Assembly: GCA_963710375.1 (NCBI GenBank)
Contig: CAVPZX010000002.1
Coordinates: forward strand, 768,001-832,000
Length of the DNA: 64,000 nt
Direction of reading: 5' to 3'
From: Nitrospirota bacterium
GTDB taxonomy: Bacteria; Nitrospirota; Thermodesulfovibrionia; Thermodesulfovibrionales; Dissulfurispiraceae
The notes under the pieces are model-generated. The model did no database searches, was not told where the DNA came from, and saw only the letters and a list, made by a program, of their open reading frames with translations. Positions 13,763-61,792 of this stretch are shown piece by piece (positions within the stretch are counted from its first letter, which is position 1; each line of letters opens with the position of its first letter). The translations under genes were made by a program, and so were the position numbers.

Positions 13763-14078
13763 ATGAAAGATAAAGACTATACCAGCATAATTTGCAAGGG
13801 ATTCTGCTCTTTTTACAGAGAGGGCAAAGAGGACCTATCCTGCGGCACCTACCTGTTTCTCAGAAACAACCTTACGCTGTGCGAGCCTCCGCTCCGTACT
13901 TGTCTTGTCAAAAATGGATGATCTCCCATCGGGAAACGTTTTTCCTGCGGATGAAGAGATAAAAAGGCTTGTCTGCGATAAATGCGATTTCCTGGTTGAC
14001 GGATGCGATTTCAGGGAAGACGGCTCACATCCCCCCTGCGGTGGATACAGCATTATAGCGATGCTATTAAAACACTAA
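13763..14078 (+). CDS. Cys-rich hypothetical protein (~104 aa) with a +1 frameshift near 13886
   Basis: MKDKDYTSIICKGFCSFY... joins ...VCDKCDFLVDGCDF...PPCGG... if one base in GAGCCTC (13883-13889) is removed; span is 316 = 3n+1. Confidence 0.65.
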
Positions 14079-14095
14079 CTAAGGGCTCGCTCGCC

Positions 14096-14497
14096 CTATG
14101 CTCCGCCAAGCCGGTTGATGATTTTTTCAATTTGTCGCGGTGGTTGCTGATTTTGTGTCATGTTTTCATTGTTGTTTACAGCAGCCTGATTGGAATTATT
14201 ATAAGCCCTGATTGCCTGTGCTGCCTCGGCATTTTGATTTGCCTGGGACTGCTGCACTGCCGGTGTGTTTCCATTTCCGGCCGGAATAGAGGCCTGTGCT
14301 GTCGCAGCCGCTGCTATACCTACAGCGCTTAAAGTAACCGTCACATCTGCTACAGCCGGCACCGGGACGTTTTCGAGTGCACCACCGGCCGGCGCCAATG
14401 CCTGCGTGCGGTTAGCTTTCTTCCCTGGCTGCTGGGTATCGTTAAGGACATCTGCTATATTAGCCACATTATTATTTGGAATCAGGCTTGCCTGCAT
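14096..14497 (-). CDS. Hypothetical low-complexity Ala/Asn/Gln-rich protein
   Basis: Strong RBS AAAGGAGG before the ATG; no recognised domain. Confidence 0.7.
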   Translation of the reverse strand: MQASLIPNNNVANIADVLNDTQQPGKKANRTQALAPAGGALENVPVPAVADVTVTLSAVGIAAAATAQASIPAGNGNTPAVQQSQANQNAEAAQAIRAYNNSNQAAVNNNENMTQNQQPPRQIEKIINRLGGA

Positions 14498-14536
14498 ATG
14501 GTCCTCCTTTAAAAAATAATACCGAAACTAATACTG

Positions 14537-15835
14537 TTATCGACCCTGCTCTTTAAGATAGCCTCTCCTGACCCTGATGGTATTCGAATGGGCCTCAAGC
14601 CCCTCAACCTCTGCAATCGCCTCCACCGTATCTGATAATAGCATAAAACTTTTCCTATCAAATTGCAATACACTAGTCCTCTTGATAAAATCATACACGC
14701 CAAGGGGAGATGAAAACCTGGCAGTGCCTCCTGTAGGTAGGGTGTGGTTGGGTCCGGCAGCATAATCACCCAGAGGTTCAGGTGTCCAGGGACCAAGAAA
14801 GACTGCGCCTGCATTATGAATAAAATCAAGGGTCTTTTCAGGTTGCTCTGTCATTATCTCAAGATGCTCAGGCGCGATACCGTTTGCTATGTCAGAGGCC
14901 TTCTCTATATCCTCTGTCAAAATCATGGCACCAAATCGTTTTAAAGATCTCCTTGCGATATCCAGTCTATTTGGACTTAAACGCCTGACCTGTTTTTCAA
15001 GATCACGGGCAACTTCGCTAATGAGCCTTTCCGAGTCTGTTATCAATATGCTGGAAGCGAGCTCGTCATGCTCTGCCTGGCTTATCATATCTGCCGCAAC
15101 AAAAGCCGGATTTGCAGTTGCATCGGCTATGATCAATATCTCACTCGGTCCCGCAATCATATCGATTGCAACTTCACCGAAAACCATCTTTTTCGCCAGG
15201 GCCACATAGATATTTCCCGGGCCGACTATTTTATCCACTTTTTTTATGATCTTTGTGCCGTATGCCATTGCTCCGATAGCCTGGGCCCCGCCTATCCTGT
15301 ACACCTCCCGCACGCCCAAAAGCTCTATTGCAGCCATAACATATGGGTTTATGTCTCCTCCGGGGGTAGGTACGCACAGGGCAATTTCATCGACCCCTGC
15401 CACGAGCGCAGGAATCACATTCATCAATACCGTTGATGGGTATGAGGCCTTGCCGCCGGGCACATAGACGCCCACACGCGCAAGCGGCCTGATCATCTGC
15501 CCCAGCACTTCACCGTTTGCCCTATATGACCATGAACTCTCCTTTTGTTTTTCATGGAAATTCCTGATCCTGGTTGCAGCGATTTCGAGCGCCTTGATAC
15601 TATGTTTTTCAGCTTTTGCAGCATACTTTTTTATTTCTGTCGGCTTAAGCCTTAAAGGCAGTTCATGCCTGTCAAACCTTTTGGTATATTTTGTTACTGA
15701 CACATCTCCTTTTTTCTTTATATCAGCAAGTATCGCCCGCACCGCTTTCTCAGTACCCGGCTCAATACCGGCAGCCCTCTTTTTGAGCAGCTGAAGAAAG
15801 GTCGCTATTTCACTCTTTTTCTTTAAAATCCTCAT
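14537..15835 (-). CDS. hisD: Histidinol dehydrogenase
   Basis: GVYVPGGKASYPS, IVGPGNIYV, IDMIAGPSE, QAEHD, APEHL and GPNHTLPT motifs; start placed after GGAGG. Confidence 0.97.
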   Translation of the reverse strand: MRILKKKSEIATFLQLLKKRAAGIEPGTEKAVRAILADIKKKGDVSVTKYTKRFDRHELPLRLKPTEIKKYAAKAEKHSIKALEIAATRIRNFHEKQKESSWSYRANGEVLGQMIRPLARVGVYVPGGKASYPSTVLMNVIPALVAGVDEIALCVPTPGGDINPYVMAAIELLGVREVYRIGGAQAIGAMAYGTKIIKKVDKIVGPGNIYVALAKKMVFGEVAIDMIAGPSEILIIADATANPAFVAADMISQAEHDELASSILITDSERLISEVARDLEKQVRRLSPNRLDIARRSLKRFGAMILTEDIEKASDIANGIAPEHLEIMTEQPEKTLDFIHNAGAVFLGPWTPEPLGDYAAGPNHTLPTGGTARFSSPLGVYDFIKRTSVLQFDRKSFMLLSDTVEAIAEVEGLEAHSNTIRVRRGYLKEQGR

Positions 15836-15927
15836 ATTCTCGTCCTCCATTATGTGTACAATAATGAAGTATGTGCGTATTGTCAATCTGACGAACAAAG
15901 ATTAGGTGATGGATTCTGGTTTAGTAA

Positions 15928-16888: not shown

Positions 16889-18340
16889 TCAGCGAGATAC
16901 CGGAAGAGTGGGAGATTCGCACTGGTCTGGAGCGTTCCAGCCGCCGCCCAGGGCCTCGATCAGAAGCACACTGGCGCTCATCCTGCGGCCAAGAATATTG
17001 ACTGCGGTGTTTTCGTCGGCCAACTCCGTTGACTGACTGACAATGACGTTGAGGTAGCTGACCGTCCCGGCCTTGTATTGGTTGGTGATCACAGCCACGG
17101 TTTTCCGGGCAGCCTTAACTGCTTCATCCTCCACCCCGGCCTCTTGCTCCAGGATTCGAAGCGCAGCCAGATTGTCTTCGACCTCCTGAAATCCCGTGAG
17201 CACAGCCTGCCGGTAGGAAGCCACACTTGCGTCGTAGGCTGCTCTCGCCTGCTCAGTCATCGCGCTCCTTAAGCCGGCGTCGAACACGGTCTCCGAGATC
17301 GCCGATCCGATTGACCACAAGCGGCTCGGCCATGTCAGCCATTTTGAAATATCAGAGGACGCAAAGCCGCCCGATGCGCTTAGAGTGATACTGGGATAAA
17401 ATGCGGATTCGGCTACTCCTATTTGTGCGTTTGCCGAAGCGACCAATCGCTCGGCAGCAGCGATATCCGGCCTCCGCTGGAGGAGTTCGGACGGTATGCC
17501 TGCTGGAATGGAAGGCGCGACAGCAGACAACGGGGCAAATGGAATCGAAAAATCCGACGCCGGTTTTCCTGCAAGCAACGCGATAGCGTGTTCCATTTGT
17601 GCTCGCTGCACACCGACGTCAATCGCCTGGGCCTCGGTGGTCTTGAGCTGGGTTTCAGCCTGGAGCACGTCAGCAATGGAATCCACGCCTTGCGCATACA
17701 GGGACTTCGTCAGTTCGAGGGACTTTCTATAGTTGGCAACTGTGGAGTCCAAAAGCTGTTTCTGCGCATCCAGTGTGCGCAACTGAAAATAGTCTTGCGC
17801 CAGCTCACCCTGAGAACTCAACTGGGTCGCTCCGAGGTCTGCCGCGCTTGCCTGGGCATTCGCCTGACTGGCTTCGACCGTGCGGCGGACCCGGCCCCAG
17901 ACATCAGGCACCCAGGATACGTTGACAGGCAGTTGGTAGTTCGAAATGCCGGACATGCTGCTTCTTCCTGTGCCGTTCACCACTGAGCTGCGGGTACGCG
18001 TAAAAGAGGCCCCGGCCGTGACTGTTGGAAAATAGCCGGCCCTAGTCTGCTGGACCAGCGCCCGCGCCTGCCGGAACTGGGCTTCAGCCGCAATAATGTT
18101 CTGGTTAGAGATGTTGACCTGCTCTTCGAGGGCATTCAACCGAGGGTCATTAAATATCTCCCACCATGCACCCTTTATGCAATTGTCCTTCGGCTGCGCA
18201 GCCTTCCAGCCGGCCGCTTCCTTATAGGAGGCAGGCACCACGGCTGTCGGCCTCACGTAATCAGGGCCTACTGTACAGGCGGTCAAAAGGGTAAAGGTCC
18301 CGGTGATCATCAAAAACTTTGCGATCTTCTGCTGCATCAT
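16889..18340 (-). CDS. RND efflux outer-membrane lipoprotein (NodT/OpmB-like)
   Basis: Lipobox LTAC-TVGPDY; PSELLQRRPDIAAAER; ALGGGW. Confidence 0.93.
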   Translation of the reverse strand: MMQQKIAKFLMITGTFTLLTACTVGPDYVRPTAVVPASYKEAAGWKAAQPKDNCIKGAWWEIFNDPRLNALEEQVNISNQNIIAAEAQFRQARALVQQTRAGYFPTVTAGASFTRTRSSVVNGTGRSSMSGISNYQLPVNVSWVPDVWGRVRRTVEASQANAQASAADLGATQLSSQGELAQDYFQLRTLDAQKQLLDSTVANYRKSLELTKSLYAQGVDSIADVLQAETQLKTTEAQAIDVGVQRAQMEHAIALLAGKPASDFSIPFAPLSAVAPSIPAGIPSELLQRRPDIAAAERLVASANAQIGVAESAFYPSITLSASGGFASSDISKWLTWPSRLWSIGSAISETVFDAGLRSAMTEQARAAYDASVASYRQAVLTGFQEVEDNLAALRILEQEAGVEDEAVKAARKTVAVITNQYKAGTVSYLNVIVSQSTELADENTAVNILGRRMSASVLLIEALGGGWNAPDQCESPTLPVSR

Positions 18341-21300
18341 TTATGTTCTCCTTTCACACGTTCAATCCAAATCCTGAAACGGTCCATATAAAGGTACATT
18401 ACCGGAGTCGTATAGAGTGTAAGCATTTGGCTGAAGATCAGCCCGCCCACGATGGAGATGCCGAGCGGGCTGCGAAGTTCAGACCCCACGCCGCCACCAA
18501 ATGCCAGAGGCATTGCACCCAAAAGCGCAGCCATTGTCGTCATCATGATTGGACGGAACCGCAGGAGGCAGGCCAGATAGATCGCCTCCTCTGAACTCTT
18601 CCCTTCCTTGCGCTCGGCCTCCAGGGCAAAGTCGATCATCATAATACCGTTCTTCTTCACTATTCCGATCAGCAGGACTATGCCGATAAGGGCAATGACA
18701 CTAAGATCAGTGTGGAATAGCATCATAGCGAGGACCGCCCCAACACCTGCAGAAGGCAGGGTTGAAAGAATTGTGATAGGATGAATGTAACTTTCATACA
18801 GCATCCCTAACACTATGTAGACGGCGACCAGTGCCGCCAGGATCAGAAGCGGTTCATTGGCCAGGGAATCCTTGAATGCCTGTGCCGTACCCGCAAAGGT
18901 GCCCCTGACGCTCGACGGCAACATCATCTGCCGCATGGAGCCCTCAATCGCTTTCACTGCATCTCCAAGCGCGAATCCGCGGGCCACATTAAACGACACC
19001 GTCACTGCCGGAAATTGCCCCTGGTGGTTAATCGCAAGTGATGTAGCAGTCGGTTCGTAATGGGTGAATGCGCTCAGGGGAACCAGCGAACCACTTGACC
19101 CGGAGACGTAGATATCCCTTAGCGTATCCGGGCTCTGCCAGTAGCGGGGAGCAGCCTCCATAACAACGTGGTACTGGTTAAGCAGGGTATAGGTAACAGC
19201 CACCTGGCGCTGGCCAAAAGCGTCATACAGGGTGTCGTCGAGGAGCTTAGGTGCGATGCCAAGCCTCGATGCGGTAGCCCGGTCGATGACGAGCGAGGAC
19301 TGAATCCCTTTGACCTGCTGGTCGCTGCTGACATCTGTAATCTGGGGCAATGTGACCAGCTTCTGGAGCACACGCTGGCCCCAAGTGTTGAGTTCTGTCA
19401 CGTTGTCTCCCTGCAGCGTGAATTGATAAAGTGCGTTGCTTATCTTCCCGCCGATGCGCAAGTCCTGTACCGGCTGGAGAAACGTGGGAGCTCCCGGCAC
19501 CCCGGCAAGCTTTTTGCGCAGTCTCGCAATCAATTGCCATATGCTCACCTTCCGCTCCTCGAAAGGTTTAAGCGTAATGAACATACGGGCGGTATTAGTT
19601 GTAGAACCGCCTCCGCCTGTGAAGCCTATCACGTATACGACCTCGGGGTCTTTCCCGATGATGTCAACTATTCGTGTCAGCTTCCTTTCCATCTCCTGGA
19701 ACGATACTGACTGATCAGCTTGGATGCCCCCCACAAGTCGTCCTATGTCCTGTTCAGGGAAGAAGCCTTTTGGAACTATGATAAACAGGATGATGCTGAC
19801 AGCAATTGTGACCAGCATCAGCATGACCATAAACCGGGAGTGCCGGAGCGCCCAGGAGAGGCTCACTTCATAGCTCCGATGCATCCAGTTGAACGCCTTC
19901 TCGTTCATCCTGTAGAACCGTCCATGCACAAGGTCTTTTTCGGATTTCAGCAATTTAGCGCACATCATGGGGGTCGTGGTCAGCGACACTACGAGAGAGA
20001 TCAGGATTGCGGCAGCGAGTGTCACGGCAAATTCATGGAACAGCCGCCCTACCATGCCTCCCATCAGCAGGATCGGAATAAAAACAGCCACAAGAGAAAC
20101 ACTCATGGAGATGACAGTGAAGGCGATCTCTTTAGTCCCTGACAACGCCGCCTGCAGGGGCGGCTCCCCCTTTTCACTGTACCGGGTTATATTCTCGAGG
20201 ACAACGATGGCGTCGTCAACAACAAATCCTGTCGAAATGGTGAGCGCCATAAGAGAGAGATTATCAAGGGAATAACCTAACAGGTACATCGCGCCGAACG
20301 TGCCTATAATCGACGTACCTACCGCCACGGCGGGAACGACTGTGGCCCTCACGTTTCGCAGAAACCAGAACACCACCATGACGACAAGGAAGGCCGAAGC
20401 AATAAGCGCCCTCTCGACATCGCGCAAAGATCCGCGAATCGGGGGGGTGCGGTCAACGACAACAGAGAGATCAACACCCCCGGGCAGGGCTGCCTTCAGT
20501 TGAGGGAGCAAGCTGCGCACATGATCGACCGTCTCGATAATATTTGCTCCAGGTTGTCTGAAAATAACGACCATGATGCAAGGCTTGCCGTTGACAAACC
20601 CAGCCGCACGCAAGTCCTCCACTGAATCAACGGCAGACCCCACATCCGCGAGCCGCACTGCATTACCGGCACTGTACTTAATAACCAGGGGTATGTACTG
20701 CGCGGCAGTATGCAGCTGGTCGTTAGTGTTGATCTCCCATGTTTTGTCACCCTTTGACAGTTGCCCCTGGGGCCGGTTTACTGTCATGCCGGACAACACG
20801 CTGCGCATGGTTTCGAGGCTGATGCCGTACTTGCTTAGCGCCATGGGGTTAAGCTCGACACGTACTGCGGGCAGCGAACTCCCTCCCACAAATACCTGCC
20901 CTACGCCCTTCACTTGCGACAGCTTTTGCCCCAGTATGGATGAAGCTGCATCGTACATCTGAGGCTTGGCCACCGTGTCAGAGGTAAGTGCCAGGATGAG
21001 AATCGGGGCGTCGGATGGGTTGACTTTGCGGTAGGTCGGGTTGCTCGGCAGAGCTGCCGGCAAGTACGCCCTTGCCGCATTGATAGCTGCCTGAACATCG
21101 CGTGCAGCCCCATCGATGTTGCGGTCCAGTTCGAACTGCAGCGTGATGCTCGTCGAGCCCCGGTTATTGACCGAGGTCATCTCGACCACGCCGGCAATGA
21201 ATCCCAACTGGCGTTCCAACGGAGCGGCGACTGATGTTGCCATGGTCTCCGGGTCTGCTCCAGGGAGCGAAGCCGAAACAGATATCGTCGGAAAGTCGAC

Positions 21301-25995: not shown

Positions 25996-27975
25996 CTACA
26001 GCCTCCCCTTAATAAGATCAGCCACCACTGAAGGATCCGCAAGTGTCGAGGTATCGCCGACATATTCTATGTCGCCTGCTGCAATCTTTCCGAGAACTCT
26101 CCTCATAATCTTGCCGCTCCTGGTCTTCGGCAGGCTTGAAACAAACTGCAATTTGTCAGGGCTTGCTAGTGAGCCTATGACCGCCCGCACGTGTCCCAGA
26201 AGTATTTTTTTAAGCTCTTCAGAAGGCTGCTGTCCACCTTTGAGCGTCACATAAACGTAAATCCCCTCACCCTTAATATCATGCGGGAACCCAACAACCG
26301 CTGCCTCGGCAACAGCTTCGTGGCTTGCCAAAGCTGACTCCACTTCAGCCGTACCAAGCCTGTCTCCCGAAATGTTGATTACATCATCACTTCTTCCCGT
26401 AAACCGGTAATCACCGTCCTCATCGCAACGGGCGCCATCGCCCGTGAAATACGTGCCCGGGAACCTTGAAAAATAGATTTCTTTCATCCGTTTATTTTCC
26501 GGGTCACCATAAGTACCCCTAATCATACCCGGCCATGGTTTGCGAATCACAAGATGGCCTGCCTCATTTGGACCTGCGGGTGAACCATCCTCTTTCAGGA
26601 TCGCAGGAACAATGCCGGGGAATGGCCTGTTGGCAGAGCCGGGCTTCATTGTCATTGCACCGGGAAGCGGCGTTACAAGAATGCCGCCGGTCTCGGTCTG
26701 CAACCAGGTGTTGACAATCGGGAGCCTGCCCTTTCCAATATATGAGTGATACCATAGCCAAGCCTCGGGACTTATCGGTTCTCCAGCAGTACCGATCAAT
26801 CGCAAGGAAGAGAGGTCGTGTTTCGCAACCCATTTTTCGCCCCCTCTCATAAGTGCCCTTATTGCAGCGGGAGAGGCGTAAAAGATATTCACGCGGTGCT
26901 TGTCGCAAATATCCCACAATCTCCCCGGATCGGGGTATGTAGGAATACCCTCGAACATGAGACTTGTTGCGCCGCTGCTCAGCGGCCCGTACACAATGTA
27001 ACTGTGTCCGGTGACCCAGCCTATATCTGAGGTGCAGAAATGAACGTCCTCCTCATGGTAATCGAATATCCATTTGAAGGTAAGGTTTGTATACAGCATG
27101 TAACCGCCTGTCGTATGTATAACCCCTTTCGGTTTTCCGGTTGAGCCGGAAGCATACAAAATAAAAAGAGGGTCTTCCGCATCCATCTCTTCAGGCTTGC
27201 AATAATTTCCAATGCCGGCAGCATTCATCTCGTCGTGCCACCATAAATCTCTCTCCGGCTCCATATCAATGCCGACTGTTCTTCTTACCACTATCACTTT
27301 TTCAACAGCGGGACATTCCTGCAGGGCAACATCGCAATTTGTCTTGAGAGGCACCTGGCGGCCACCCTTGATGCCCATGTCGGAAGTTATGACGAGCGTG
27401 GCTTTGCAGTCCTGTACCCTGTATTTGAGCGCGTTGGCACTAAAACCGCTGAAGACGATGCAGTGAATTGCTCCTATCCTCGCACAGGCAAGCATGGAAA
27501 TAGCAAGTTCGGGGACCATAGGCAGGTAAATAACGACTCTATCGCCTTTCTTCACTCCCTGCTTCTTGAGGACATTGGCAAACCTGTTGACCTCATAATA
27601 AAGCTGCTGATAGGTATACGTCTTGTAGCTGCCGTCGTCAGACTCCCATATCAACGCTGCCTTATTCCGAACAGGGGTGTTGATAAACCTGTCAAGGCAA
27701 TTGTACGACGCATTCAATTTGCCGCCGATAAACCACTTTATTTCCGGCTTTTCAAAGCTCCACTCAAGCACCTTGTCCCATTTGTTAAACCAGGCTAGCT
27801 GCTTTTCCGCCATTTCAGACCAGAACCCTTCAGGGTCTTCCACCGATCTTTTATATATCTTCTCATACTCTTCCATGCTTCTGATATAAGCATTGCGGCT
27901 GAATTCAGGTGATGGGGGAAAGGTCATTTTTTCAGCGGACAAAACTTCATTGCTCTCGTTCAACATCCCTGCCAC
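25996..27975 (-). CDS. acs: AMP-forming acetyl/acyl-CoA synthetase, divergent paralogue
   Basis: Acs-family sequence with LPKTRSGKIMRR, but non-canonical motifs (YASGSTGKPKG, GTAGEPI, NTWLQTE). Confidence 0.85.
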   Translation of the reverse strand: MAGMLNESNEVLSAEKMTFPPSPEFSRNAYIRSMEEYEKIYKRSVEDPEGFWSEMAEKQLAWFNKWDKVLEWSFEKPEIKWFIGGKLNASYNCLDRFINTPVRNKAALIWESDDGSYKTYTYQQLYYEVNRFANVLKKQGVKKGDRVVIYLPMVPELAISMLACARIGAIHCIVFSGFSANALKYRVQDCKATLVITSDMGIKGGRQVPLKTNCDVALQECPAVEKVIVVRRTVGIDMEPERDLWWHDEMNAAGIGNYCKPEEMDAEDPLFILYASGSTGKPKGVIHTTGGYMLYTNLTFKWIFDYHEEDVHFCTSDIGWVTGHSYIVYGPLSSGATSLMFEGIPTYPDPGRLWDICDKHRVNIFYASPAAIRALMRGGEKWVAKHDLSSLRLIGTAGEPISPEAWLWYHSYIGKGRLPIVNTWLQTETGGILVTPLPGAMTMKPGSANRPFPGIVPAILKEDGSPAGPNEAGHLVIRKPWPGMIRGTYGDPENKRMKEIYFSRFPGTYFTGDGARCDEDGDYRFTGRSDDVINISGDRLGTAEVESALASHEAVAEAAVVGFPHDIKGEGIYVYVTLKGGQQPSEELKKILLGHVRAVIGSLASPDKLQFVSSLPKTRSGKIMRRVLGKIAAGDIEYVGDTSTLADPSVVADLIKGRL

Positions 27976-30254: not shown

Positions 30255-32316
30255 CTAAAACTCGACCTTGCCCTCTCCCTGCACCATTTTTGTAATGAAC
30301 TCGACAATTTCGGGATTGGCCAATGTCATAACATCGCCCACATCCGTGCCGTTGGAAATAGAGCCGAGTACTCTGCGCATGATCTTTCCTGAGCGCGTCT
30401 TCGGCATATCGGGCACAATCCAGACCTTTCTCGGTCTTGCAATAGCTCCGATTTCCGTGACAATGGCATTTGATATTTTCTTGGCAAGTTCCTCGCTTGC
30501 CTTGAGCCCGGGTTTCAAAGCAATATACAGATCAGGTTCTTTCCCTTTTATTTCATGTTTCACAGGAACAACTGCAGCTTCCGCGACTTCAGGAACAGTG
30601 AGCGCAGCAGACTCGATTTCCTTTGTCCCAAGTCTGTGTCCGGAAACATTGATAACATCGTCGATCCTGCCCAGGATGCGGACATACCCGTCAGCAGCCA
30701 CCACTGCGGCGTCACCCGCGAGATACGGCCAATCCCGCCAATCTTTACTCTTCGGGTTCTTGCAGTACCTTTCATAATACGTCTTAACGTAGCGGTCACG
30801 GTCGCCCCAGATAGTCTGGAAACTGCCGGGCCAGGGGTTCTGGATGCATATATTCCCCGCCTTGCCCGAGCCGGCCGGGACTACGACTCCGTCATTGTCA
30901 TAAACAATGGGGTGAATGCCGGGCACGCCTGGACCGGCGCTGCCTGGCTTCATCGGCTTTATAGCCGGTATGGTGCTGCAGAGGAACCCGCCGTTTTCTG
31001 TCTGCCACCAGGTATCTACGATAGCTGCCTCGTTCTTACCCACCTCGTGATAATACCACTTCCATACTTCAGGCTCGATAGGTTCTCCAACTGTAGTCAT
31101 ATGCTTGAAATGGTAATTATACTTCGCAGGCTCATCCGGACCTACCTTTCTCAGCGCCCTGATGGCGGTAGGCGCCGTATGGAAGATGTTGATATCAAGG
31201 TTCTGGGCAATCCGCCAGGGTCTGCCTGGGTCCGGATATGTCGGGACGCCTTCGTAAATAACACTTGAGGCGCACAATGCCAACGGGCCATAGACAATAT
31301 ATGAATGCCCGGTGATCCATCCGATATCGGCCATACACCAGTAAACATCTTCCGGATGGATGTCCTGTATATATTTTGATGTTCCGGTTACATAAGCAAG
31401 ATAACCGCCCGTGCTGTGCTGGCAACCTTTGGGCTTTCCGGTTGTGCCGCTGGTATACATCAGGAAAAGCGGCGCTTCGGCAGGCATCGGCACCGGATCA
31501 ATACGGGCGCCGTAATACTTCTTCAGCAGCTCGTTGACAAAGAAATCGCGGCCCTCCACCATAGGTGTCTTTGCAGAATATTTGCCTGGATAGCGCTGCC
31601 ATACCAATACCTTTTTAATCTTCTGGCCATCTTTTGCAGCGTCTGCAACAGCAATATCCGCTTTTTCCTTGTGATCAATGAGTCTGACCGCTCCTGTAAT
31701 AGGCGTCCATCGTTATAAGAAATTCGCTTCCTGAGTCGACGATCCTGTCCGCGCACGCCCTTCCGCTGAACCCGCCGAAGACCTGTGAATGGATAATGCC
31801 GAGCCTTGCGCATGCAAGCATTGTGATGGGCAGCTCAGCAACCATCGGCAAGTGCAGTGTCACCCTGTCCCCTGCCTTAAGGCCCAACTCATCTCTAAGA
31901 ATTGCCGCAAACTCGTTCACCCTGACATACAGTTCCTGATAGGTAACATGCTGTACTGCCTCACTCTCGTTTTCCGAGACAAAATGGATTGCCGTCTTGT
32001 TCTTGTTCTTGGCCAGGTGCCTGTCTATACAATTGTAGCTTGCATTGATCTTTCCTCCCACAAACCACTTCCAACATGGCGCGTCACTGGTATCAAGGGT
32101 TGTATGCCAATACTCGTACCAGGTCAGCAGATCGGCATATTCCTTGAAACAATTGGGAAAGTTCTTCAGCGCAAACCGATCGTAAACTGCCGGATCCGTC
32201 ACGTTCGCCTGAGCAATAAATTTTGCTGTGGGATAGAAAAACTGCTCTTCACCCCAATGCACCGCAATTTCAGCTTCAGATGTTTCAAGTACTTCTTTCT
32301 TGTTTTTTTCAGCCAC
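30255..32316 (-). CDS. acs: Acetyl-CoA synthetase (canonical motifs), +1 frameshift at ~31683
   Basis: YTSGTTGKPKG, VDTWWQTE and PKTRSGK motifs. The two ORF halves join if one base at 31680-31686 is removed; span is 2062 = 3n+1. Confidence 0.9.
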
Positions 32317-40495: not shown

Positions 40496-42904
40496 TCTTC
40501 GGCTACCCTTCCAATACTTACGATCCGGTCTTCAGCCTCCAGGTCCATAAGTTTAACTCCCTGAGTATTTCTTCCAAGCACCGAAATATTTCCCGCAACA
40601 GTCCTTATTAATTTTCCGGCGTTAGTGATAAGGACCACCTCATCCTCATTTTTTACCTGGAGGAGACCGACCGCATTGCCGCCTCTCTCCACTACCTTAA
40701 TTGAAATAACTCCTTTCCCGCCGCGGCCATGAACAGGATATTCCCCTATTTCGGTCCTCTTGCCAAGGCCTTTTTCCGTTACCGTTAAAAGGGTCATTCT
40801 TTCCTCGACAACATTGGCGGAAACAACTTCGTCGTCCTTACCCAGCCGGATGCCTATAACACCTCTGGCAGTCCGCCCGACTGACCTGACATCATCTTCC
40901 TCAAATCTGGCGGCAAGCCCGCGCTTAGTGCCGATAATAATGTCATTATTCCCAGAGGTCTTTTTAACGGCAATCAGACTCGTCGCCTTCGTCCAATGTC
41001 ACAGCTATTATACCTTTTGCCCTTGGGTTGCTGTATTCGCTGAGCTTTGTCTTTTTCACAATGCCGGCTTTGGTGAACATAACCAGATACCCATCGCTAA
41101 AATCTTTGACATTCAGAGCGGTCGTAATCCGTTCTCCATCTGAAAGAGAGAGGACGTTTACAAGCGCCTTACCCTTTGCCGCCCTACCAGCCTCTGGTAT
41201 CTGGTATATCTTAAGCCAATAGAGCCTGCCATTGTTGCTGAAAAACAGCATGTAGTCGTGAGTAGACCCTATAAAGAGCTGTTCAACAAAATCCTCTTCC
41301 CTGGTCTCCATCCCTGTCAGCCCCTTGCCTCCCCGGCGCTGGCTTCTGTATATCGACAGAGGATTCCGTTTGATGTACCCATTATGGGACACTGTTATAA
41401 CCATCTCCTCTTCTGTGATGAGGTCTTCTATGGTCAGATCAGCCGTCTCAGGGACAATATCTGTTCTTCTCTCGTCAGCGTATTTGTTTTTGACCTCGAC
41501 AAGCTCGTCTTTAACGATTTTCCATACGAGGGCTTCACTCCCGAGGATTGCCTTCAACCTCTCAATCTCTTTCAGCGTGTCTTCGTAATCCTTTATGATC
41601 TTATCACGCTCCAGCCCGGTCAGGCGCTGCAGGCGCATTTCCAGTATCGCCTGGGCCTGGATCTGGGACAGCGGGTATTTAGTCATTAGTCCTGTTCTGG
41701 CATCATCAGGGGTCTTTGACCGTCTGATAAGAGTGATGATTTCATCGAGGTGGTCCAGCGCTATCTTGAGACCTTCGAGGATATGTGCTTTTTCTTCAGC
41801 CTTCCTCAATTCGAAGCGCGTCCTGAAGAGTATTACATTCCTGCGGTGCTGAAGAAAATTGTCCAGCATATCCTTAAGCGTCAGGACAAGGGGCTTCCCT
41901 GCCACAATCGCAAGCATAATGACGCCGAACGTGGATTCCATTGCCGTGTGCTTGTAGAGATTATTGAGGATTACCTGAGCCATCTCTCCGCGCTTTATTT
42001 CCATAACTATCCTTATCCCGTCCCTGTCGGACTCGTCCCTGATATCAGAGATGCCCTCAATGCGCTTCTCGCGGACCAGCTCAGCGATCTTTTCAATAAG
42101 ACGCGCCTTGTTGACCTGGTATGGAAGTTCGCTGACAATTATGCTTTCGTTGCCGCGGGCTTCGCGTTCTACCAATACCTTTGCGCGAACTTTGATCAAA
42201 CCCCTGCCCGTGGTATAGGCACTGACAATGCCCCGGGTCCCGTGAATAATCGCGCCGGTAGGAAAATCAGGACCTTTTACGGCTGCCATCAACTCATTCA
42301 CCGTGACCTGGGGGTTCTCAAGCAGCATAATCAAGCCGTCCACAACCTCCCCGAGATTATGGGGCGGTATATTGGTAGCCATACCGACGGCGATACCAGC
42401 AGAGCCGTTGACAAGGAGATTGGGGACCCTTGTCGGAAGCACTACAGGCTCTTCAGTCGTTTCATCGAAATTAGGGGTAAAAGCAACTGTTTCCTTATCT
42501 ATATCGGCAAGGAGTTCTTCTGAAATCTTTGCCAGCCGCGCTTCGGTATACCGGTATGCAGCAGCAGGGTCGCCGTCAATAGAGCCGAAATTGCCCTGTC
42601 CGTCCACAAGTACGTACCTCATATTAAAATCCTGTGCCAGACGCACCAGAGCGTCATAGACCGCAGAGTCGCCATGGGGGTGGTATTTTTTCAAAACTTC
42701 GCCTACAACACCCGCGCATTTTGAGTATTTCTTATTGGGGAGAAGCCCTTCCCTGAACATGGCATAGAGTATTCTCCTCTGTACCGGCTTCAGGCCGTCC
42801 CGTACTTCAGGCAACGCCCTGCCGATGATTACGCTCATGGCGTAATCAAGATAGCTGACTTTCATCTCTTCTTCTATGCTGATCGACACCTTAGGCTGCA
42901 ACAT
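40492..42904 (-). CDS. gyrA: DNA gyrase subunit A, +1 frameshift at ~40978 (probably a sequence error)
   Basis: [19 protein letters not shown] and GyrA box QRRGGKG; span is 2413 = 3n+1. Confidence 0.96.
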
Positions 42905-45067: not shown

Positions 45068-45595
45068 TTATCGTTCATATTTCCGGAGCAAACTCATCCT
45101 GACAAATACCTTGTCGCCCTTCCTCCAATAATGGATGTCAACAATATCAGGGGCTGCTAATGTAAAGGTCAGGTAAAGAGGCCGGATCTCATACCCGATT
45201 ACCCTGCCGGTGCCGTCAACAATCCTGGCTGTCTGTGCCCTCGTAAAATCCGGATTCCGGCTGATGAAGCTGTATGCCACGGCAAGCGCCTCTTTTGCAG
45301 GCAGACGTTTTATAATCCTGTAATCGTATTCCGGGGTATAGGGTTCGATTGTATAGGGGCTATCTTCATCGGCGAGAATGGCCACAGTTTCCAGGGCCCT
45401 CGCGTAAATGCCGCCGTACAGTATGAGAGAATAGGTTCCCGTAATTTCTTTTTCAGAGGCATCTTCTGTCCGGATCTCATGCTTGAGCGAGAATCCGCAG
45501 GCGGTGACCACAAAGGAAAAGAATAATAACAGAACTGCCGACGACAAGTGTTTCAACTGTATCCTCATTCTAAAAACATACAACCCTTCTTTCAT
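45068..45595 (-). CDS. Hypothetical lipoprotein, paralogue A
   Basis: Lipobox VVTAC; shares EIRTEDASEKEITGTYSLILYGGIYA and VIGYE.RPLY with paralogue B. Start may be 45568. Confidence 0.8.
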   Translation of the reverse strand: MKEGLYVFRMRIQLKHLSSAVLLLFFSFVVTACGFSLKHEIRTEDASEKEITGTYSLILYGGIYARALETVAILADEDSPYTIEPYTPEYDYRIIKRLPAKEALAVAYSFISRNPDFTRAQTARIVDGTGRVIGYEIRPLYLTFTLAAPDIVDIHYWRKGDKVFVRMSLLRKYER

Positions 45596-46481: not shown

Positions 46482-48302
46482 GTGGAAATCAAAAACAAAT
46501 TCGACCCAACTACATCAACCGAAAGACTGCTTGACCTAATACGCGGCAAGAGTGATGGGACCGAAATTCATCAGGCCCAACAGCCCGTGAGACCCATAGT
46601 TATAAAGACAAGCAAATTAGTACGGCCGAAGTCAAAAACAAATTCTCAGTCGGTGACTGTGGGCATTGACATCGGATATGAAAATTTAAATCTGGTTAAG
46701 GCAGCTGGGTCTGCGCAAACATGGAAGATTTTAGAGTGCAAGAGCATCCCCATCCCTTCGGATATTGAAAAAGGATCAGACGCATTCAATGCTTTTTTGA
46801 AGTCAGCAGTGGTCCCTTTTTGCAGCGGTGCGAATAGGATCGAAACATGGGCCATCATGTCTTCTGCAGAGGTTGAGGTACGACTCATTCGCATTCCAAA
46901 GGTCCCTGCAAAAAATATCGAAGCAACCGTTTTCTGGACTCTTAAAAAAGAGGTGGCCATTAACGATACAGAATCTTTCCTGGACTATGAGGTGCGGGGA
47001 CAAATAAACGAATCCGGCATTGAAAAACTTAATGTCATGTGTTATGTGGCTCCCCTTGCAGCCATAGAAGAAACAAGGAAACTCTTCTCAAAAATCGGAG
47101 TGCAGCTGGCCGGCGTATCAATCATTTCGTTTGCAGTTCAGAATATCTTTTTGAATAACGTTATGCCCCTGCCTGAAAAACAGACCGCATGTCTGTTTAT
47201 CGGCAACAACTATTCCCGCATCGATCTGTACACCGACAGGAAACTGACAATGACGCGCGATATCATGACAGGTATTACCAGTATAGTTGAGACGCTGATA
47301 GAGGACATAAACAGCCTGACAAGCGAAGGCGGGAAGCATTCCCATGAGGAAGCCAGACAGATCCTTTTCGCCTTTACGCAGAGCAGCACCACTCCTCTTG
47401 TTCTCGCTGACGGCCTCTCTGTGGAAAGGGAAAAGGTTGACAGCATTGTCTCTCCTGTTCAGGAAAGGATAGTGCGTCAAATAGAGAGGACCTTCGAGCA
47501 TTTCACTTCGACCCTCGGATATGACAGGGTTGAAAAAATATATATTTCGAGTGTAATGCCTGTATCCAAAGCTATGGTCGATTATTGCGGCGCTCAACTT
47601 GGCATCGAGTGCGAAGTGTTTGACCCGCTTGAGCAGGTGCTGCAGACAAGCAGCTTTGAGAAACGGAATTCATTTATTCCTGCATTAGGCATTGCCCTGT
47701 CGGACAATGCTTATACTCCCAATTTCCTCCATTCCTTCAAGGACAAAAAAAAGGCCGAATATGTCGTGAAGTTTAACAAGGCTATTCTGATATGTTTAAT
47801 CGTTTCGCTGCTTGCATGTTCGGCCATTTTTGCATACGAATGGCTAGATATCGGCAACAAAAAGGCGGAATTGGCCCGGCTTGAGCAACAACTGCAAAAG
47901 AACTCTCCGCTCGTGAGTAAAGAAACATTCCTCCAGATAGCAGCTGCTGCAAAGCACAAACAGCAAAACTATGTCGAACTTAGCCATAGATACGTGGGAA
48001 TGGCCCTTATCGGAGAACTATCGTCCCTTACTCCGGAGTCCGTGAGCCTCACCAGTTTAAGGGCCGACTTTGCGGAAAAGCCAAAGGGAAACACATTAAA
48101 ATCTGAACACACCTCAGTAGTAGAGGGGATTATCAATGGCAATGAGAATATGCTCCAGACTCTGCTCGCCTCTTACGTGATGAAACTAAGATCCTCGCCG
48201 ATGTTTTCCGAAGTGAATGTTTCATCGAGCAAGATAGAAACATCAAAGCAGGGGTCTTCTCTCACTTTTGTGCTCAATCTTAAATTGGGGCCTAACAAAT
48301 GA
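46482..48302 (+). CDS. Fused PilM(actin-like)-PilN type IV pilus alignment protein
   Basis: VGIDIG, a PilM-like body, ALGIAL..PNFL, a TM segment, then a PilN-like domain ending LRSSPMFSEV. Confidence 0.8.
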   Translation: MEIKNKFDPTTSTERLLDLIRGKSDGTEIHQAQQPVRPIVIKTSKLVRPKSKTNSQSVTVGIDIGYENLNLVKAAGSAQTWKILECKSIPIPSDIEKGSDAFNAFLKSAVVPFCSGANRIETWAIMSSAEVEVRLIRIPKVPAKNIEATVFWTLKKEVAINDTESFLDYEVRGQINESGIEKLNVMCYVAPLAAIEETRKLFSKIGVQLAGVSIISFAVQNIFLNNVMPLPEKQTACLFIGNNYSRIDLYTDRKLTMTRDIMTGITSIVETLIEDINSLTSEGGKHSHEEARQILFAFTQSSTTPLVLADGLSVEREKVDSIVSPVQERIVRQIERTFEHFTSTLGYDRVEKIYISSVMPVSKAMVDYCGAQLGIECEVFDPLEQVLQTSSFEKRNSFIPALGIALSDNAYTPNFLHSFKDKKKAEYVVKFNKAILICLIVSLLACSAIFAYEWLDIGNKKAELARLEQQLQKNSPLVSKETFLQIAAAAKHKQQNYVELSHRYVGMALIGELSSLTPESVSLTSLRADFAEKPKGNTLKSEHTSVVEGIINGNENMLQTLLASYVMKLRSSPMFSEVNVSSSKIETSKQGSSLTFVLNLKLGPNK

Positions 48303-51476: not shown

Positions 51477-52689
51477 GTGATCATGGACTATTTCAGGATT
51501 CTGAATCTTAAAAGGGAACCTTTTTCCAATACCCCTGACCCCGAACTGTTTTATCCGTCACGCAATCACGTGGAATGTTTGCAGAGGATCGAAATGGCCA
51601 TTCGTCTCAAGCGGGGGTTGAACGTAGTAATCGCAGAGGTCGGAACAGGAAAAACGACTTTGTGCAGGCAGACTCATCCAGCAGATTTCTACAGCAGAGG
51701 GAAATGAATTGATAGATCTGCACCTCATACTGGATCCATCCTTCTCCAGTTCCAGTGAATTCCTTTCAGTTATAGCAGGGTGTTTTGGCCTGATCCCGCA
51801 CGGCGAAAACATCATTGACCGGAGCGATTGGCAACTGAAGGAATCGATCAAGAATTACCTTTTATCAAAGGGAGTGGAAGAGGGGAAAATAGTGGCACTT
51901 CTGATAGATGAGGGCCAAAAACTACCGGATTTTTGCCTTGAAATATTGCGCGAGTTTCTTAATTGTGAAACCAATGACAGCAAACTCCTCCAGATAGTGA
52001 TTTTCGCCCAAAATGAATTCAAGGAACAAATTAACGCGCAGGCCAATTTTGCAGATCGGATCAATTTGTGTTATTCCCTGACTCCGTTCGGTTTCAGGGA
52101 AACCTGCAGAATGATAAAGTACCGCATCAACGAAACGAGCGTGAATGGCGCAGGCCGGGTGCTGTTTACTTTGCCGGGACTGTTTGCCGTTTACAGGGTT
52201 ACGGCAGGCTACCCCCGCTCCATCAATATGCTTTGTCATCATGTAATGCTCGCGCTAATAATTCAGAACCGTGTCAAGGCTGGGTGGTCCCTGGTACGCT
52301 CCTGCGCCGGCAGGCTCGCCATCAAACGGCGGAGGCCGGTCAATCTGCGGTTGGCGTTCATGGTCACAATACTAATGGTGTCGTTCTCATTTCTCGCATT
52401 TGCCTATTATGAACCTTTATTGAAAACAGCCTCATCGATAACAGGACTTTTTCAGGCAGTGGCTGAGGACCAGCTCGCCGTCAACTCAAGGCCGCAACCA
52501 GATCCCTCTGAATCAGGCGAAAGAAAAAACGCACCGTCCGTTCCCTGGCAATGGTTCATGGAAAAAGGCCGGCCCCCGGCGATAAAATCAGTTTTCCAGA
52601 CAGTGCCGGAGCAACCGCTCGCCGTCAACTCAAGGCCGCAACCAGATCCCTCTGAATCAGGAGATAAGAATGCGGAGGACAGACTGTGA
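51477..52689 (+). CDS. ExeA/MshM-like AAA ATPase, +1 frameshift at ~51672
   Basis: REPFSNTPDPELFY, Walker A EVGTGKTT, Walker B LIDEGQ, GYPRSINMLC and a C-terminal TM; span is 1213 = 3n+1. Confidence 0.85.
52473..52661 (+). repeat. Exact 45-bp direct repeat, two copies 144 bp apart
   Basis: gctcgccgtcaactcaaggccgcaaccagatccctctgaatcagg at 52473-52517 and 52617-52661 (encodes LAVNSRPQPDPSESG). Confidence 0.9.
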
Positions 52690-54571: not shown

Positions 54572-54582
54572 GAATCATTATT

Positions 54583-56442: not shown

Positions 56443-58894
56443 TTATTTCAGCTTAAGACGCGCACAGGCGTCAGGGTCCTTGAGGGCGCAGCCCCTTCGC
56501 AAATCAGTCAGAGCCTCTTGAGTTCTCACCTGTCCTGAGATAAAGTTTCCCCCGGTCTGTGTAGGCAACGGCGAGATTGGGGTCCAGTGAGAGCGCTTTA
56601 TTGAAGTCTGCAAACGCATGATCAAATTCTTTTAATTCCGAATAAGCGAGCCCCCTGCTGACATAAGTGGGGGCATATGCAGGGTTGAGTTCGATCGCCT
56701 TTGTATAGTCCCCAATCGAACGGAAGTAATCTTTTTTGGAATAAAAAGAGAGACCCCGGCCGTCATACAATGCAGGACTTTTATCGTATAATGCAATAGC
56801 CCTGGTATATTCCCGAATAGCGAAATCATACTGCCCCAAATAATTATAAGCAACAGCAGACTTGTAATGAGCTACTATGTCTTTTTGATCAATTCTGACT
56901 GCTGAGGCGAAATCGGCAATAGCATTTGCGTATTCTTTACGTGCCATAAACATTTCCCCCCTGTTACGGTAGGCGTCTGAATCGTATGGAAAGTCGCGTA
57001 ATATTTTGCCGAACAACTGCATTGCTTCATTATATTTCCCATTACGGCCATAACACACAGCGAGGGCATAAAGCGGTCCTTCAGAATGTGGATTCATTGC
57101 AAGGGCCTTGAAAAGGTTATCCATAGCAAGCGATGGTTCTCCTTTTTCAAGATACGCTATGCCCATTCCTGTATAGGTCTTTGAATTTTTTTGTAGGGCA
57201 TCTGCTTTGGCAAAGTTTTCGAGGGCAATTTCATATTCCTTTTTCAGCAGGAATGCCTCTCCCTTGTTATGCCAGGCTAATACAGATTTTGGGGAGAGAA
57301 TGAGAGCCCTGTCAAGCGCCTCAAGGGCCTTATCAGGCTGATTTACGGCAATATAGGCATTGCCCATATTGTTCCAGGCCTGGCTGCTATTGGGGCTCTT
57401 CTCAGTGACATCTTTCCAAAAGGCAACCTTGTTTGACCAGACATCGTTCCTTGCATAGGTCATCCCGAACAATACGGCGATTACCACAAAGCAGAGCTGA
57501 AGCAGCATTCTCCTTTCCCTGTCGAATCTTATACGCTCTGCGACCACGAACAGGGCTGTACAGAGCGCTATGAAAAAACCGGCCGAAGGCAGATACAGCC
57601 TGTATTCATCGATGAGAGTAGGCAAGGGTATAATGCTCGATTCAACCGAGAGCGTCATAAAATACCAGAGTATACCGAACCCGATAAGGCGAAACTCAGG
57701 ACTGAGGCCAGAGGACTGAGGACTGAGACGCGAGGACTGAGAGATGAGGACTGAGGACTTAGCAGAAAGGTTTTGGTCTTCGCGCTTTGCTCTCAGTCCT
57801 TCGCCCTCAGTCCTTGTTCTTTTCGCAGTCTTCTTCACCAAGTATACCCCAAGGACAAAGAGCGCTGATAAACATATGAACGACAGCATCACCTGCGGAT
57901 TGAAGAATGATTTATAGAGGGGATAATCATAAATAAGGGTCTGGTTTACAGGCACAAACATCAATCTGAGATAAGTAATAATTACCCTGAATTGGGTAAA
58001 GAAATAGGGCCAGCGCGGCATCTCCGGGTATCCTACGTCGGCCACCGCCACCGTGGCCATTATCTGATGAAGATGTTTGCCCGACCCCATCATTGTCCGG
58101 ATGATTGTCAGAGGCACGATGCATGAAGTCAGCAACAGAGGAGCGAGATAAAGTAGCCGCTGAAAAAAACTGACGCGGGGATGCGGAGACGCGGAGACAC
58201 GGGGATAAGGACTGAAAAAGCAAAACTCATATAAAGTGATCACAAAAGGCAGGGTAAAGGCGTTCTCCTTTGTCTTCATGGCTGCGATCGAGGATAAAAT
58301 CGAGAGGGCGTAAAATATATACCGGCTTTTTTTACCGGCGGATAAGCGCCAACATGCATAGGAAACAATCGACAGGAGGTAAAACAGTGCGGCCAACGAT
58401 GCCAGCCGCTGAAAAACATAAGTCACAGCTTCAGTTTGGATGGGATGTATTGCAAAAAGCAGAGAGATTGAAAATGCGATAGCTTTCGACTTCTCGCTTA
58501 ACCGGGAGTCCCGTAAAAATGGAGACCTGAATGTAAGCAAAACAAGGAAGTATATAAGCGCGGCATTAATTAAATGTATACAGACATTTACAATATGGTA
58601 ACCCAACACAGCGAAGCCGTGGAGTTTATAGTTGACTGCAAACGTAAGATAGCCTAAATACCTTATTATGAAGCCGTCATAAAACGTAAGTCCCGCTGCT
58701 TTTGAAGGCTCCAGAAAATAGGTCAGATTTTTGATAATCGGATTTTCACGAAGAAAAATGTCTTCATCCCACTGAAAAGGGGCATTAAAGGTATTGGAGT
58801 ATGCCAAAAAACCGATAACAGCAATCAGCAGAATATGGAAAACCGGGTTACCAGGAATATTCTTTTTTATGGTTTGTGCGATTTTTCTCAGCAT
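56443..58894 (-). CDS. TMTC-like (GT-C) membrane glycosyltransferase with C-terminal TPRs, +1 frameshift at ~56525
   Basis: PFQWDE, HIVNVCIH, FAIHPIQTEAV, LRLMFVPVNQTLIYDY and EYRLYLPS motifs, then many TPRs; likely true tail QEALTDLRRGCALKDPDAC. Start is uncertain. Confidence 0.8.
57699..57813. repeat. Nine degenerate GGACTGA heptamers plus inverted copies, in frame inside the TMTC-like gene
   Basis: 57699-57761 is 63 bp; tcagtcc copies lie at ~57791-57813. Confidence 0.85.
58172..58211. repeat. Five degenerate GACGCGGA octamers inside the TMTC-like gene
   Basis: gacgcggg gatgcgga gacgcgga gacacggg gataagga; encodes SPYPRVSASPHPRVS. Confidence 0.8.
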
Positions 58895-59485: not shown

Positions 59486-59949
59486 AGAGGCCAGAGTCAA
59501 GAGTCTTTAGTCAAAACGGAAGTGGGTTTACACTTATAGAAGTGATAATCACTATCGTCGTTGTCGCTGTCCTTGCGACTATGATATATTCCTATTTCAG
59601 TACAGCCATAACTCAAAGCTCAACCCCGGTGAACAGGCTGGTGACTGCGTTGCAGTCCCAGACAGTCATGGAGAATATAACTGCCGACTGGATGGACCCT
59701 TCGCATCCGCAAAATACCTCTTATCTTACCAGTTTAAGCGTTAATATTGGACCCGAGGGTTCGTCAAACCATACACCTGCTTACGGGCAATACACGGTTA
59801 TTGACAACCATTTCATAACCTGGAACTCTAACAATGACGTTCAAACCGGGGCGAGTAATTGTCTGAAGGTGACGGTGCAGGACAATCTCGGTGAGACACT
59901 CACGGAAATATATGTTGCTCAAAATATCGGGTCCGCCAATTGCAACTGA
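59482..59949 (+). CDS. Minor pilin (MshD/PilV-like)
   Basis: SG|FTLIEVIITIVV prepilin motif. Confidence 0.82.
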   Translation: MKRPESRVFSQNGSGFTLIEVIITIVVVAVLATMIYSYFSTAITQSSTPVNRLVTALQSQTVMENITADWMDPSHPQNTSYLTSLSVNIGPEGSSNHTPAYGQYTVIDNHFITWNSNNDVQTGASNCLKVTVQDNLGETLTEIYVAQNIGSANCN

Positions 59950-59962
59950 AGGACAAAAGGTC

Positions 59963-60511
59963 ATGACGCACTACAACAGTAAACATCAATGTCGTAAGCG
60001 GGATGTGTCATTCAACGAGAATGGTTTCACCCTGATCGAGATGATCCTGGTTATTGTGATCCTTGGGATTATTGTTATCATAGCAGGCGTTGGCATAGTC
60101 AATGTGACTAATGGCCTGCTACTGACAAACCAAACTGCCTTAACGGTTCTGAAAGCACAGGCCGCTATGACCAGGATTCAAAAAGAGATGTACATATTAA
60201 ATTCGGTCGCTACCGGTAATTCGAATTCGATTACGTTTACGAACGATAAAGGAGGAGGCTCGGCCACTTATACGCTGTCCCAGTCCGGTAATAGCATTAT
60301 CCTTAGTGACGCTAACGGTAACAACGACACCCTCATCGACAGCGTAGTAGCATCCACTTTTTCATTGACATATAACAATACGTATAACGGAACGCCAGGG
60401 TCAACGTTTATTCCCTCAACAACCAAGATCATTAATGTCAGCTTCACCCTGTCAGGCTATGGCGGAGCGCAGAGTACATTTAACATGCGTATCAGGCCAA
60501 GAAGTTTATGA
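59963..60511 (+). CDS. Minor pilin (MshO/PilW-like)
   Basis: NG|FTLIEMILVIVILG; start placed at ATG 59963. Confidence 0.82.
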   Translation: MTHYNSKHQCRKRDVSFNENGFTLIEMILVIVILGIIVIIAGVGIVNVTNGLLLTNQTALTVLKAQAAMTRIQKEMYILNSVATGNSNSITFTNDKGGGSATYTLSQSGNSIILSDANGNNDTLIDSVVASTFSLTYNNTYNGTPGSTFIPSTTKIINVSFTLSGYGGAQSTFNMRIRPRSL

Positions 60512-61792
60512 CCATGGATAGTAAACATCAGAATCGGGGAAAAAGCAAAATCGGGAGCCGGAGAGGGTCCATTCTAATAGGATTGGTCATTACCCTGCTT
60601 ATTATGGTGATTGCCGGCGTTGCAACCGTTTATTTGACCACAGGCTCAACATACACTGAGATCCTGAAAAACAATAATGTGAAAGCTTACTATCTTGCAG
60701 AGTCAGGCGGTCGGGTTGCCTACCCTCTCATATACTCGGATTTGCTTAATGGGAATCAGACAAACATGCAGGCCCTGTTTGGGACCAATTTATCGAACAC
60801 TCCTACCTATACCCTTTCAACCGGAACGTTCACCCTTTCCATTAGCAACGTTACCTCTACATCAGCGCTTCTAACTTCTGTTGGCACAGTCAATTCAGGT
60901 AGTTGGCTTCAAACCAAGAGAAATGTCGTATATTCAGTTGGTGCTGTGCCAGTGTCTGGCAGCGGTCCAAGTAACAGCCCCAGCAGCAGTTTTTACAATC
61001 AGACTAATTTCAACAACGATTGGATTACCGGACCTGGCACGACGGCATCGCCGGGCACAAGCACCGGACCTTCCGCAGGAACTGCATTGATGTTTAAAGG
61101 GGGCAGTGGTTTCATTGCCATGAATTGGACGGCCGGAAGTGTTGTTCCTTCGTCTTACGATATCCAGCTGAAAATTAACGTAAATGCTCAAGGAAGTCAC
61201 GGAAAGTTTTACCTGTTAGGTCTGTCATTCCGCCTGAGCCTAGACAGACTCAAATAATCCTCAAAATTGTTATGGTATTTCATTTTTTAGAAACGATGGG
61301 TCCGCCCCGTCCTCCTGGCCTTCTTCTTTGGTTACCGCACTGAGTAGCATCCCTGGTTCTGCTAATGAATACATAGTGTTATGGAAGGAGATCAACGGGA
61401 CATATTCTTTAATCGATTACAGACAGTTAACCCAAAGTGACGGCGTTTTGAATTCTGATGGAACATTGGCAACTTGGTCTACTATCATCATTACACTAAA
61501 TCAGACAATTGCTGGTGGTTCGAATAGTATATCATCTTATATTGCTGGACCTGCGACATATCCATACGGAACGGTCAATTGGCAATTTTCTAGTTTTACG
61601 CCAGTATCCTGGCATGCTAACGGGACTAACCCAATTGTGGATAGTTCTCTCACAACAGCGCAAGCTCCTGAAATAGGGATTCACAGCTTCTATGATAGCA
61701 ATGCTGCAAATGACCAGTTTTTTGCTGATTTCACAGTGCTTCCGACAAGCAGTGGAAACGGAGGAACCGGAAGCTCACAGCAGTATTATTAG
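60508..61792 (+). CDS. PilX/MshP-like minor pilin with a large C-terminal domain, +1 frameshift at ~61248
   Basis: RRG|SILIGLVITLL (no Glu5) and KAYYLAESG; the halves join on deleting one base; span is 1285 = 3n+1. Confidence 0.75.

Follow-up and report, generated by a model that had tools for sequence, protein, structure and literature searches.

Six genes seemingly broken by single extra bases

The window analysed here is a stretch of 64,000 nucleotides (G000:C2:768001-832000) from the assembly of a Nitrospirota bacterium, hereafter G000, which spans 3.19 Mb in 9 contigs and is 98.8% complete. Six of its genes appear broken, each by one extra base at the centre of a short recurring word. 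Three lie on the + strand: a small cysteine-rich open reading frame (ORF) with GAG[C]CTC at 13883..13889, where 13886 is the spurious base in GAGCTC; the gene for an ExeA-like AAA ATPase with CAG[A]CTC at 51669..51675 (spurious base 51672); and a PilX-like gene with CAG[A]CTC at 61245..61251 (spurious base 61248). On the - strand are the acetyl-CoA synthetase gene acs with GAG[T]CTG at 31680..31686 (31683, in GAGCTG), gyrA with CAG[A]CTC at 40975..40981 (40978, in CAGCTC), and a gene for a TPR protein with GAG[C]CTC at 56511..56517 (56514).

An initial annotation of this DNA, made from the letters alone, had quoted five of these seven-base words, all of which are present where it placed them, and had proposed that deletion of the middle base restores each reading frame. 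Such removal indeed joins frames of 641 + 162 codons in gyrA, 216 + 476 in acs, 65 + 338 in the ExeA-like gene, 254 + 181 in the PilX-like gene and 89 + 63 in the cysteine-rich ORF. According to Pfam, the gyrA site splits the beta-propeller repeats 3 + 3, and the acs site splits the AMP-binding domain into profile positions 2-100 and then 151-378. The sixth site had been misplaced near 56520-56527; with the surplus base relocated to 56514, all six sites fit one motif.

The sequencing runs that best hold the window's DNA are soil metagenomes. We compared contigs from five of them (X1-X5, two studies) with two 20 kb stretches of the window (39,982 bases), leaving out runs with small word shares (X6-X20). 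Outside the differences described here, the run contigs are nearly letter-identical to the window; X1, for example, covers 9,357 bases with two gaps and zero other letters. The extra bases are missing from the other runs at all five sites compared. Base 13886 is absent from 3/3 covering runs (a fourth has zero depth there), and 31683, 51672, 56514 and 61248 are each absent from 4/4 runs, one of them at a depth of 2.7 in the case of 61248. The gyrA site falls outside both stretches, and its evidence comes from relatives: base 40978 is absent from 9/9 aligned relatives. Differences confined to a single run were set aside, namely 36 substitution rows and one deletion in the stretch with 51672, 56514 and 61248, and 14 substitution rows and one deletion in the stretch with 13886 and 31683; also left aside from the former stretch were two rows at 46344, where a repeat with three copies lies, and one further row.

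Although the window sequence does contain the extra bases, they are assembly consensus errors. Reads across the sites had been suggested as a check, and the run contigs, which lack the extra bases, uphold the earlier view that these genes are unlikely to be true pseudogenes. On the best explanation, none of the six genes is broken in the living organism.

SAGCTS as an error motif

For a wider view, a 1.8 Mb portion of the relative G003 (4.2 Mb in all) supplied 1,506 ORFs for alignment to G000, of which 887 passed an identity and coverage filter (881 kb). The comparison yielded 82 frame-changing events, 55 of them net +1 and 11 net -1. SAG[N]CTS (S, C or G; N, any base) is centred within 4 nt in 37 of the 52 single +1 events, against a background of 1.17% (binomial p 1e-59). 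Sixteen of these 37 insertions fall in CAGCTC/GAGCTG, 14 in CAGCTG and 7 in GAGCTC, and none has A or T on either side. Under a looser one-base rule, SAGCTS is found in 40/52 insertions (background 3.1%) and 7/11 deletions (background 13%). The remaining single-base events comprise 2 at GTCGAC, 2 at GTYRAC, 2 beside intact SAGCTS and 10 others, several of which lie in homopolymers. Insertions occur at 16/444 CAGCTC/GAGCTG sites versus 21/305 sites of the two palindromes (p 0.058); at the former, 13/16 added bases are purines when read on the CAGCTC strand.

The initial annotation had proposed AGCT or AGCTC as the motif and genome-wide enrichment as a check. Indels over the 881 kb of aligned genes are indeed strongly motif-enriched, far beyond chance; the flanks of the proposed motif were wrong, since the flank table (0/37 with A or T) rules out AGCT and AGCTC, and the motif is SAGCTS. 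Sites that read normally had been taken as a sign of a partial effect. They do not demonstrate partial methylation, because a methylated motif can be misread at some of its occurrences and not at others, as reported in PMC12392509. The aligned part holds 712 intact SAGCTS, and approximately 6% of sites carry an indel.

The run comparison points to the same word. All 11 differences common to the runs over the 39,982 bases fall in SAGCTS (7) or GTCGAC (4), motifs that together cover 0.8% of the bases, and 7/46 SAGCTS sites in the run-checked 40 kb are wrong (95% interval 6-29%). Besides insertions, these include two substitutions seen in 4/4 runs: CAGTTG at 13097..13102, with T for C at 13100, and CAACTG at 47889..47894, with A for G at 47891, both of which read CAGCTG in the runs.

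Other measures differed in power. Plain k-mer counts are blind to the motif (observed/expected ratio, O/E, 1.04 for CAGCTC and 0.99 for AGCTC), in-frame stops relative to G003 were mostly spurious ORFs and were uninformative, and a homology-free frame-joining test was weak (109/3653 versus 1.3-2.0% in control words). A codon-model frameshift detector, which recovered 19/37 known sites, scored 47/3,655 SAG[N]CTS sites in G000 versus 2/1,871 in G003.

GTCGAC as a second error motif

An account based on a single motif, as originally proposed, misses GTCGAC. Four differences shared by 4/4 runs restore this word: the window has GTTGAC at 17921..17926 (position 17923) and 26710..26715 (position 26712), and GTCAAC at 20452..20457 (position 20455) and 45137..45142 (position 45140). 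Together with the two that restore CAGCTG, these make six run-common substitutions, and 6/6 are G-to-A on one strand. GTCGAC is miscalled at 4/7 checked sites (95% interval 18-90%). Its O/E is 0.35 in G000 versus 1.08 in G003 and 0.92 in the relative G005, and transitions at its centre outnumber those of the opposite direction 46 to 4, their non-synonymous share being raised (0.45 versus 0.31). Part of the depletion in G000 may be true avoidance.

Three other candidates for the second motif were rejected. GTYRAC, the HincII-like word, was dismissed because 0/36 true GTCAAC or GTTGAC sites were miscalled in the checked stretches, yet two insertions fit GTYRAC only under the one-base rule. GRCGYC and GTCGAN were rejected as well.

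Candidate writers of the two motifs

A search of the genome for methyltransferases, as had been recommended, turned up a fitting cytosine-N4 enzyme. The gene at G000:C2:522189-523358 encodes a PF01555 protein that matches M.PvuII (PDB 1BOO) over residues 13-300 (E 1.7e-101), and its TSPPF motif precedes the S-adenosylmethionine-binding motif, which is the order of beta-class cytosine-N4 enzymes. An overlapping partner gene (locus G000:C2:522189-524362) encodes a protein carrying MTaX1 and HNH_2 only, with no match to the PvuII endonuclease family. The methyltransferase was not found in 9/9 genus relatives and has matches in 17/390 genomes of the class, G000 included. From its sequence, this PvuII-like enzyme is likely the writer of SAGCTS, as N4-methylcytosine (m4C). 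If so, it does not keep to a strict CAGCTG specificity, as 23/37 insertions lie in CAGCTC/GAGCTG or GAGCTC. The same locus type occurs in another genome, G248 (G248:C6:37974-41639), where an 89% identical copy of the methyltransferase ends after residue 220 and a piece of the HNH gene lies approximately 1.2 kb beyond; we read that locus as interrupted or partly replaced.

The second motif also has a candidate writer. At G000:C2:852376-854889, an RE_XamI endonuclease gene (PF09572, E 1.9e-119) adjoins a gene for an NPPY-type adenine methyltransferase. No copy of this XamI-family system turned up in G002, G003 or G005, and the family is present in 9/390 class genomes. XamI is an isoschizomer of SalI, with the site GTCGAC and N6-methyladenine (m6A) as its mark; the library searched yielded no paper on this site. 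On that presumed specificity, the XamI-family system is likely the writer of m6A at GTCGAC.

A model for the errors

Considering these observations together, we think it quite probable that the extra bases are consensus errors on SAGCTS, arising where m4C from the M.PvuII-like enzyme is misread by a presumed nanopore basecaller. In this model, native DNA carrying SAG-m4C-TS and GTCG-m6A-C would have been read on a nanopore, with the methylated base of SAGCTS being its central C, as in M.PvuII, which methylates the central C of CAGCTG at N4 according to the available text of PMC7544214. Reads of the marked strand would often give A for the G immediately 5' of the modified base, while those of the other strand give G. 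The consensus could then take the wrong letter (CAACTG, CAGTTG), retain the two side by side (CAG[A]CTC, GTCGA[A]C) or lose one of them. A single rule, the misreading of G 5' of the mark, would also cover GTCAAC and GTCGA[A]C at GTCG-m6A-C. That the added base tends to be a purine fits the two-letter outcome.

Published accounts describe several of these ingredients. In R10 data, methylated motifs raise G-to-A errors more than any other class (bioRxiv 10.64898/2026.01.14.699587), errors at modified sites are strand-specific (PMC11610603), and consensus error can be dominated by a methylation motif, as for Dcm at CCWGG (Wick et al. 2019, PMC6591954). The initial annotation had proposed that base modification causes motif-specific errors here, a view supported by the run comparison, the indel enrichment and the fitting methyltransferase. 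Of the chemistries it listed (m4C, m5C or a rarer modification), the cytosine-N4 enzyme suits the first; searches for dndC and for TGT genes gave no pointer to a rarer one.

The link between enzyme and motif in other genomes

If PvuII-like enzymes of this type write SAGCTS, other genomes that encode them might bear traces of it. For avoidance counts we kept 80 of 174 homologue loci, with 1.2 Mb of DNA around them, where CAGCTG is strongly depleted (O/E 0.15). Furthermore, an unrelated genome with long contigs, G391, holds a 69% homologue together with the HNH partner. In 394 kb of G391, 3/289 SAG[N]CTS sites score versus 3/2,523 control sites, a weak signal (p 0.017). Its top four candidates are two CAG[A]CTC, one GAG[T]CTG and one CAG[C]CTC; in Pfam, two of the four split ABC ATPase domains, one separates the two domains of a GH116 glycosidase and one is uninformative. 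The sole candidate in G005 is a true wza/wzc gene boundary and was discarded. As a separate observation, GTCGAC is nearly absent from G391 (O/E 0.01 in 394 kb), yet no XamI endonuclease match was found in that genome.

Several results weigh against our interpretation. First, depletion of CAGCTC around the homologues is no more than mild (O/E 0.85; 519 seen, 621 expected; AAGCTC/AAGCTG approximately 1.2), and GAGCTC stands at 0.48 versus 0.52 in relatives without the enzyme, such that the avoidance evidence backs CAGCTG and scarcely extends to SAGCTS as a whole. Second, in G390, which has a 69% homologue (379 kb), 1/247 sites score, no more than controls; an unbiased high-threshold scan found SAG[N]CTS in 0/21 regions of G390 and 0/4 of G391. 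Third, SAGCTS substitutions relative to G003 show no excess over the reverse direction, their non-synonymous share is low (0.16), and 10/63 single-base events fit neither motif. Fourth, G000 holds other methyltransferases of unassigned specificity, including a C5 enzyme with Vsr. Finally, X1 and X2 are possibly the source sample itself and X3-X5 come from the same study as X1, while modification and enzyme assignment are inferred, and the window's platform and the runs' library types are not on record. Because the signal in G391 is weak and G390 lacks enrichment, we grade the link between the PvuII-like enzyme and SAGCTS as supported and no higher.

Other modification genes and repeats

G000 encodes at least nine DNA methyltransferase-like genes; one further match looks like a HemK-type protein methyltransferase, and no match to a Dam-type methyltransferase was found in the genome. 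At G000:C5:473429-476000, genes for a C5 methyltransferase and Vsr flank one for a 247 aa protein that has 874 homologues and zero Pfam or PADLOC matches, and that is likely an unclassified restriction endonuclease. No site for the C5 enzyme could be derived from 7 homologous loci (39 kb). An XhoI-family endonuclease and a beta-class methyltransferase are encoded at G000:C3:40181-41825; CTCGAG is depleted in G000 and its relatives, and it bears no error footprint (0/3 checked sites; transitions 21 versus 13). A phage-like region at G000:C5:54510-65041 carries a C5 methyltransferase and a Mod-Mrr fusion methyltransferase, and at G000:C2:1006211-1008087 an N6_Mtase-family methyltransferase (414 aa) is followed by a 217 aa protein without a Pfam match.

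Two places in the window stand out in the run data. A GC-rich intergenic element at 46304-46377 has two more genomic copies at approximately 89% identity, and run contigs break and disagree there. Within the TPR gene, 57700-57820 shows a depth spike and joints at short GACTGAG-type repeats in several runs, probably reflecting a short repeat common to other loci.

Alternative explanations

The same artefact could stem from another writer or chemistry at SAGCTS. Candidates would be the Vsr-associated C5 methyltransferase acting on C5, a pair of enzymes whose sites overlap, or a modification of the backbone or of some rarer kind. We regard this as unlikely, with a real share of the doubt. The specificity of the PvuII-like enzyme is inferred, M.PvuII itself is strict for CAGCTG in the available text of PMC7544214, the C5 system is likewise rare (1/401 phylum genomes searched), and the insertion rates given above differ between CAGCTC/GAGCTG and the palindromes. 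Set against these points, the site of the PvuII homologue is a subset of SAGCTS, and G391 has the PvuII homologue and SAG[N]CTS splits with no match to the partner gene of the C5 system. For the rarer chemistries, dndC had no match in G000 (no control genome passed the cut-off either), and a second, dpdA-like TGT gene was not found there, the genome having a single TGT match.

It is very improbable that a basecaller or polisher simply falters on the sequence context of SAGCTS and GTCGAC, without any modification. In its favour, the available text of bioRxiv 10.64898/2026.01.14.699587 has the G-to-A bias in amplified DNA too, and the platforms of the compared genomes are not on record. However, G003, also in long contigs, shows next to none of the SAG[N]CTS signal, GTCGAC is scarce in G000 and not in two relatives, and the flank selectivity is absolute (37/37). 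Moreover, for each of the two error motifs G000 encodes a restriction-modification family to match, neither of which turned up in G003, G005 or G002.

PvuII cuts blunt at CAG^CTG, and LigD adds single bases at blunt ends. Real insertions, whether pseudogenes, programmed +1 recoding or blunt-cut AG/CT scars end-joined with one added base, would agree with the added base lying at the exact site centre in 37/52 events, but this idea is largely refuted and receives almost no weight from us, as runs near-identical over kilobases lack the extra bases, gyrA is among the affected genes, substitutions and deletions hit the same words, and no Ku gene was found in this 98.8% complete genome.

Implications and comparison with known systems

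Consensus errors from methylation thus remain our preferred explanation, and the phenomenon is a known artefact of ordinary restriction-modification systems: both m4C at SAGCTS and nanopore errors at methylation motifs have already been published. Its value is mainly as a quality warning on this assembly. Approximately 5 genes per 100 carry a false SAGCTS frameshift (47 events in 887 aligned genes) despite the high completeness estimate, approximately half of the GTCGAC sites are miscalled, and claims of pseudogenes, recoding or motif avoidance based on the G000 genome should be discounted. SAGCTS also emerges as the likely specificity of a common and uncharacterised methyltransferase-HNH pair. 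By a narrow balance, we favour the view that the widespread pairing of an MTaX1-HNH protein with an M.PvuII-like enzyme is a SAGCTS restriction-modification family whose specificity, as for enzymes of other uncultured organisms, can be read from public long-read error footprints with no need of raw signal; titles and abstract openings in the literature yielded no published recognition site for MTaX1 systems.

Among characterized enzymes, M.PvuII shares the word CAGCTG, which is error-prone here and avoided around the homologues. It differs in that the footprint here extends to CAGCTC/GAGCTG and GAGCTC, that the partner is an MTaX1 and HNH protein, and that the G000 enzyme has approximately 90 extra C-terminal residues. 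Closer in motif are M.Ble402III and M.Ble401III of Beggiatoa leptomitoformis, for which SAGCTS was measured as an m4C motif by single-molecule real-time (SMRT) kinetics (PMC4675945, PMC5920184). The motif of M.Ble402III is identical and the modification type is the one inferred here, whereas our motif was read from assembly errors; the likeness drawn here concerns the motif, and no Beggiatoa record is among the 80 of 174 homologue loci. For the second motif, XamI offers the parallel of an RE_XamI endonuclease beside an adenine methyltransferase, with the G000 errors falling at strict GTCGAC.

The phenomenon as a whole most resembles the nanopore errors described for other methylation motifs. 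The motifs here, SAGCTS and GTCGAC, are different ones, the nanopore platform is presumed in this case, and the commonest frame-breaking form, one added central base, is a form that we did not find described in the available text of the nanopore-error literature compared. In that same text, as in G000, the errors concentrate on the methylated word, strike only some of its occurrences, are biased toward G-to-A and are absent from other data.

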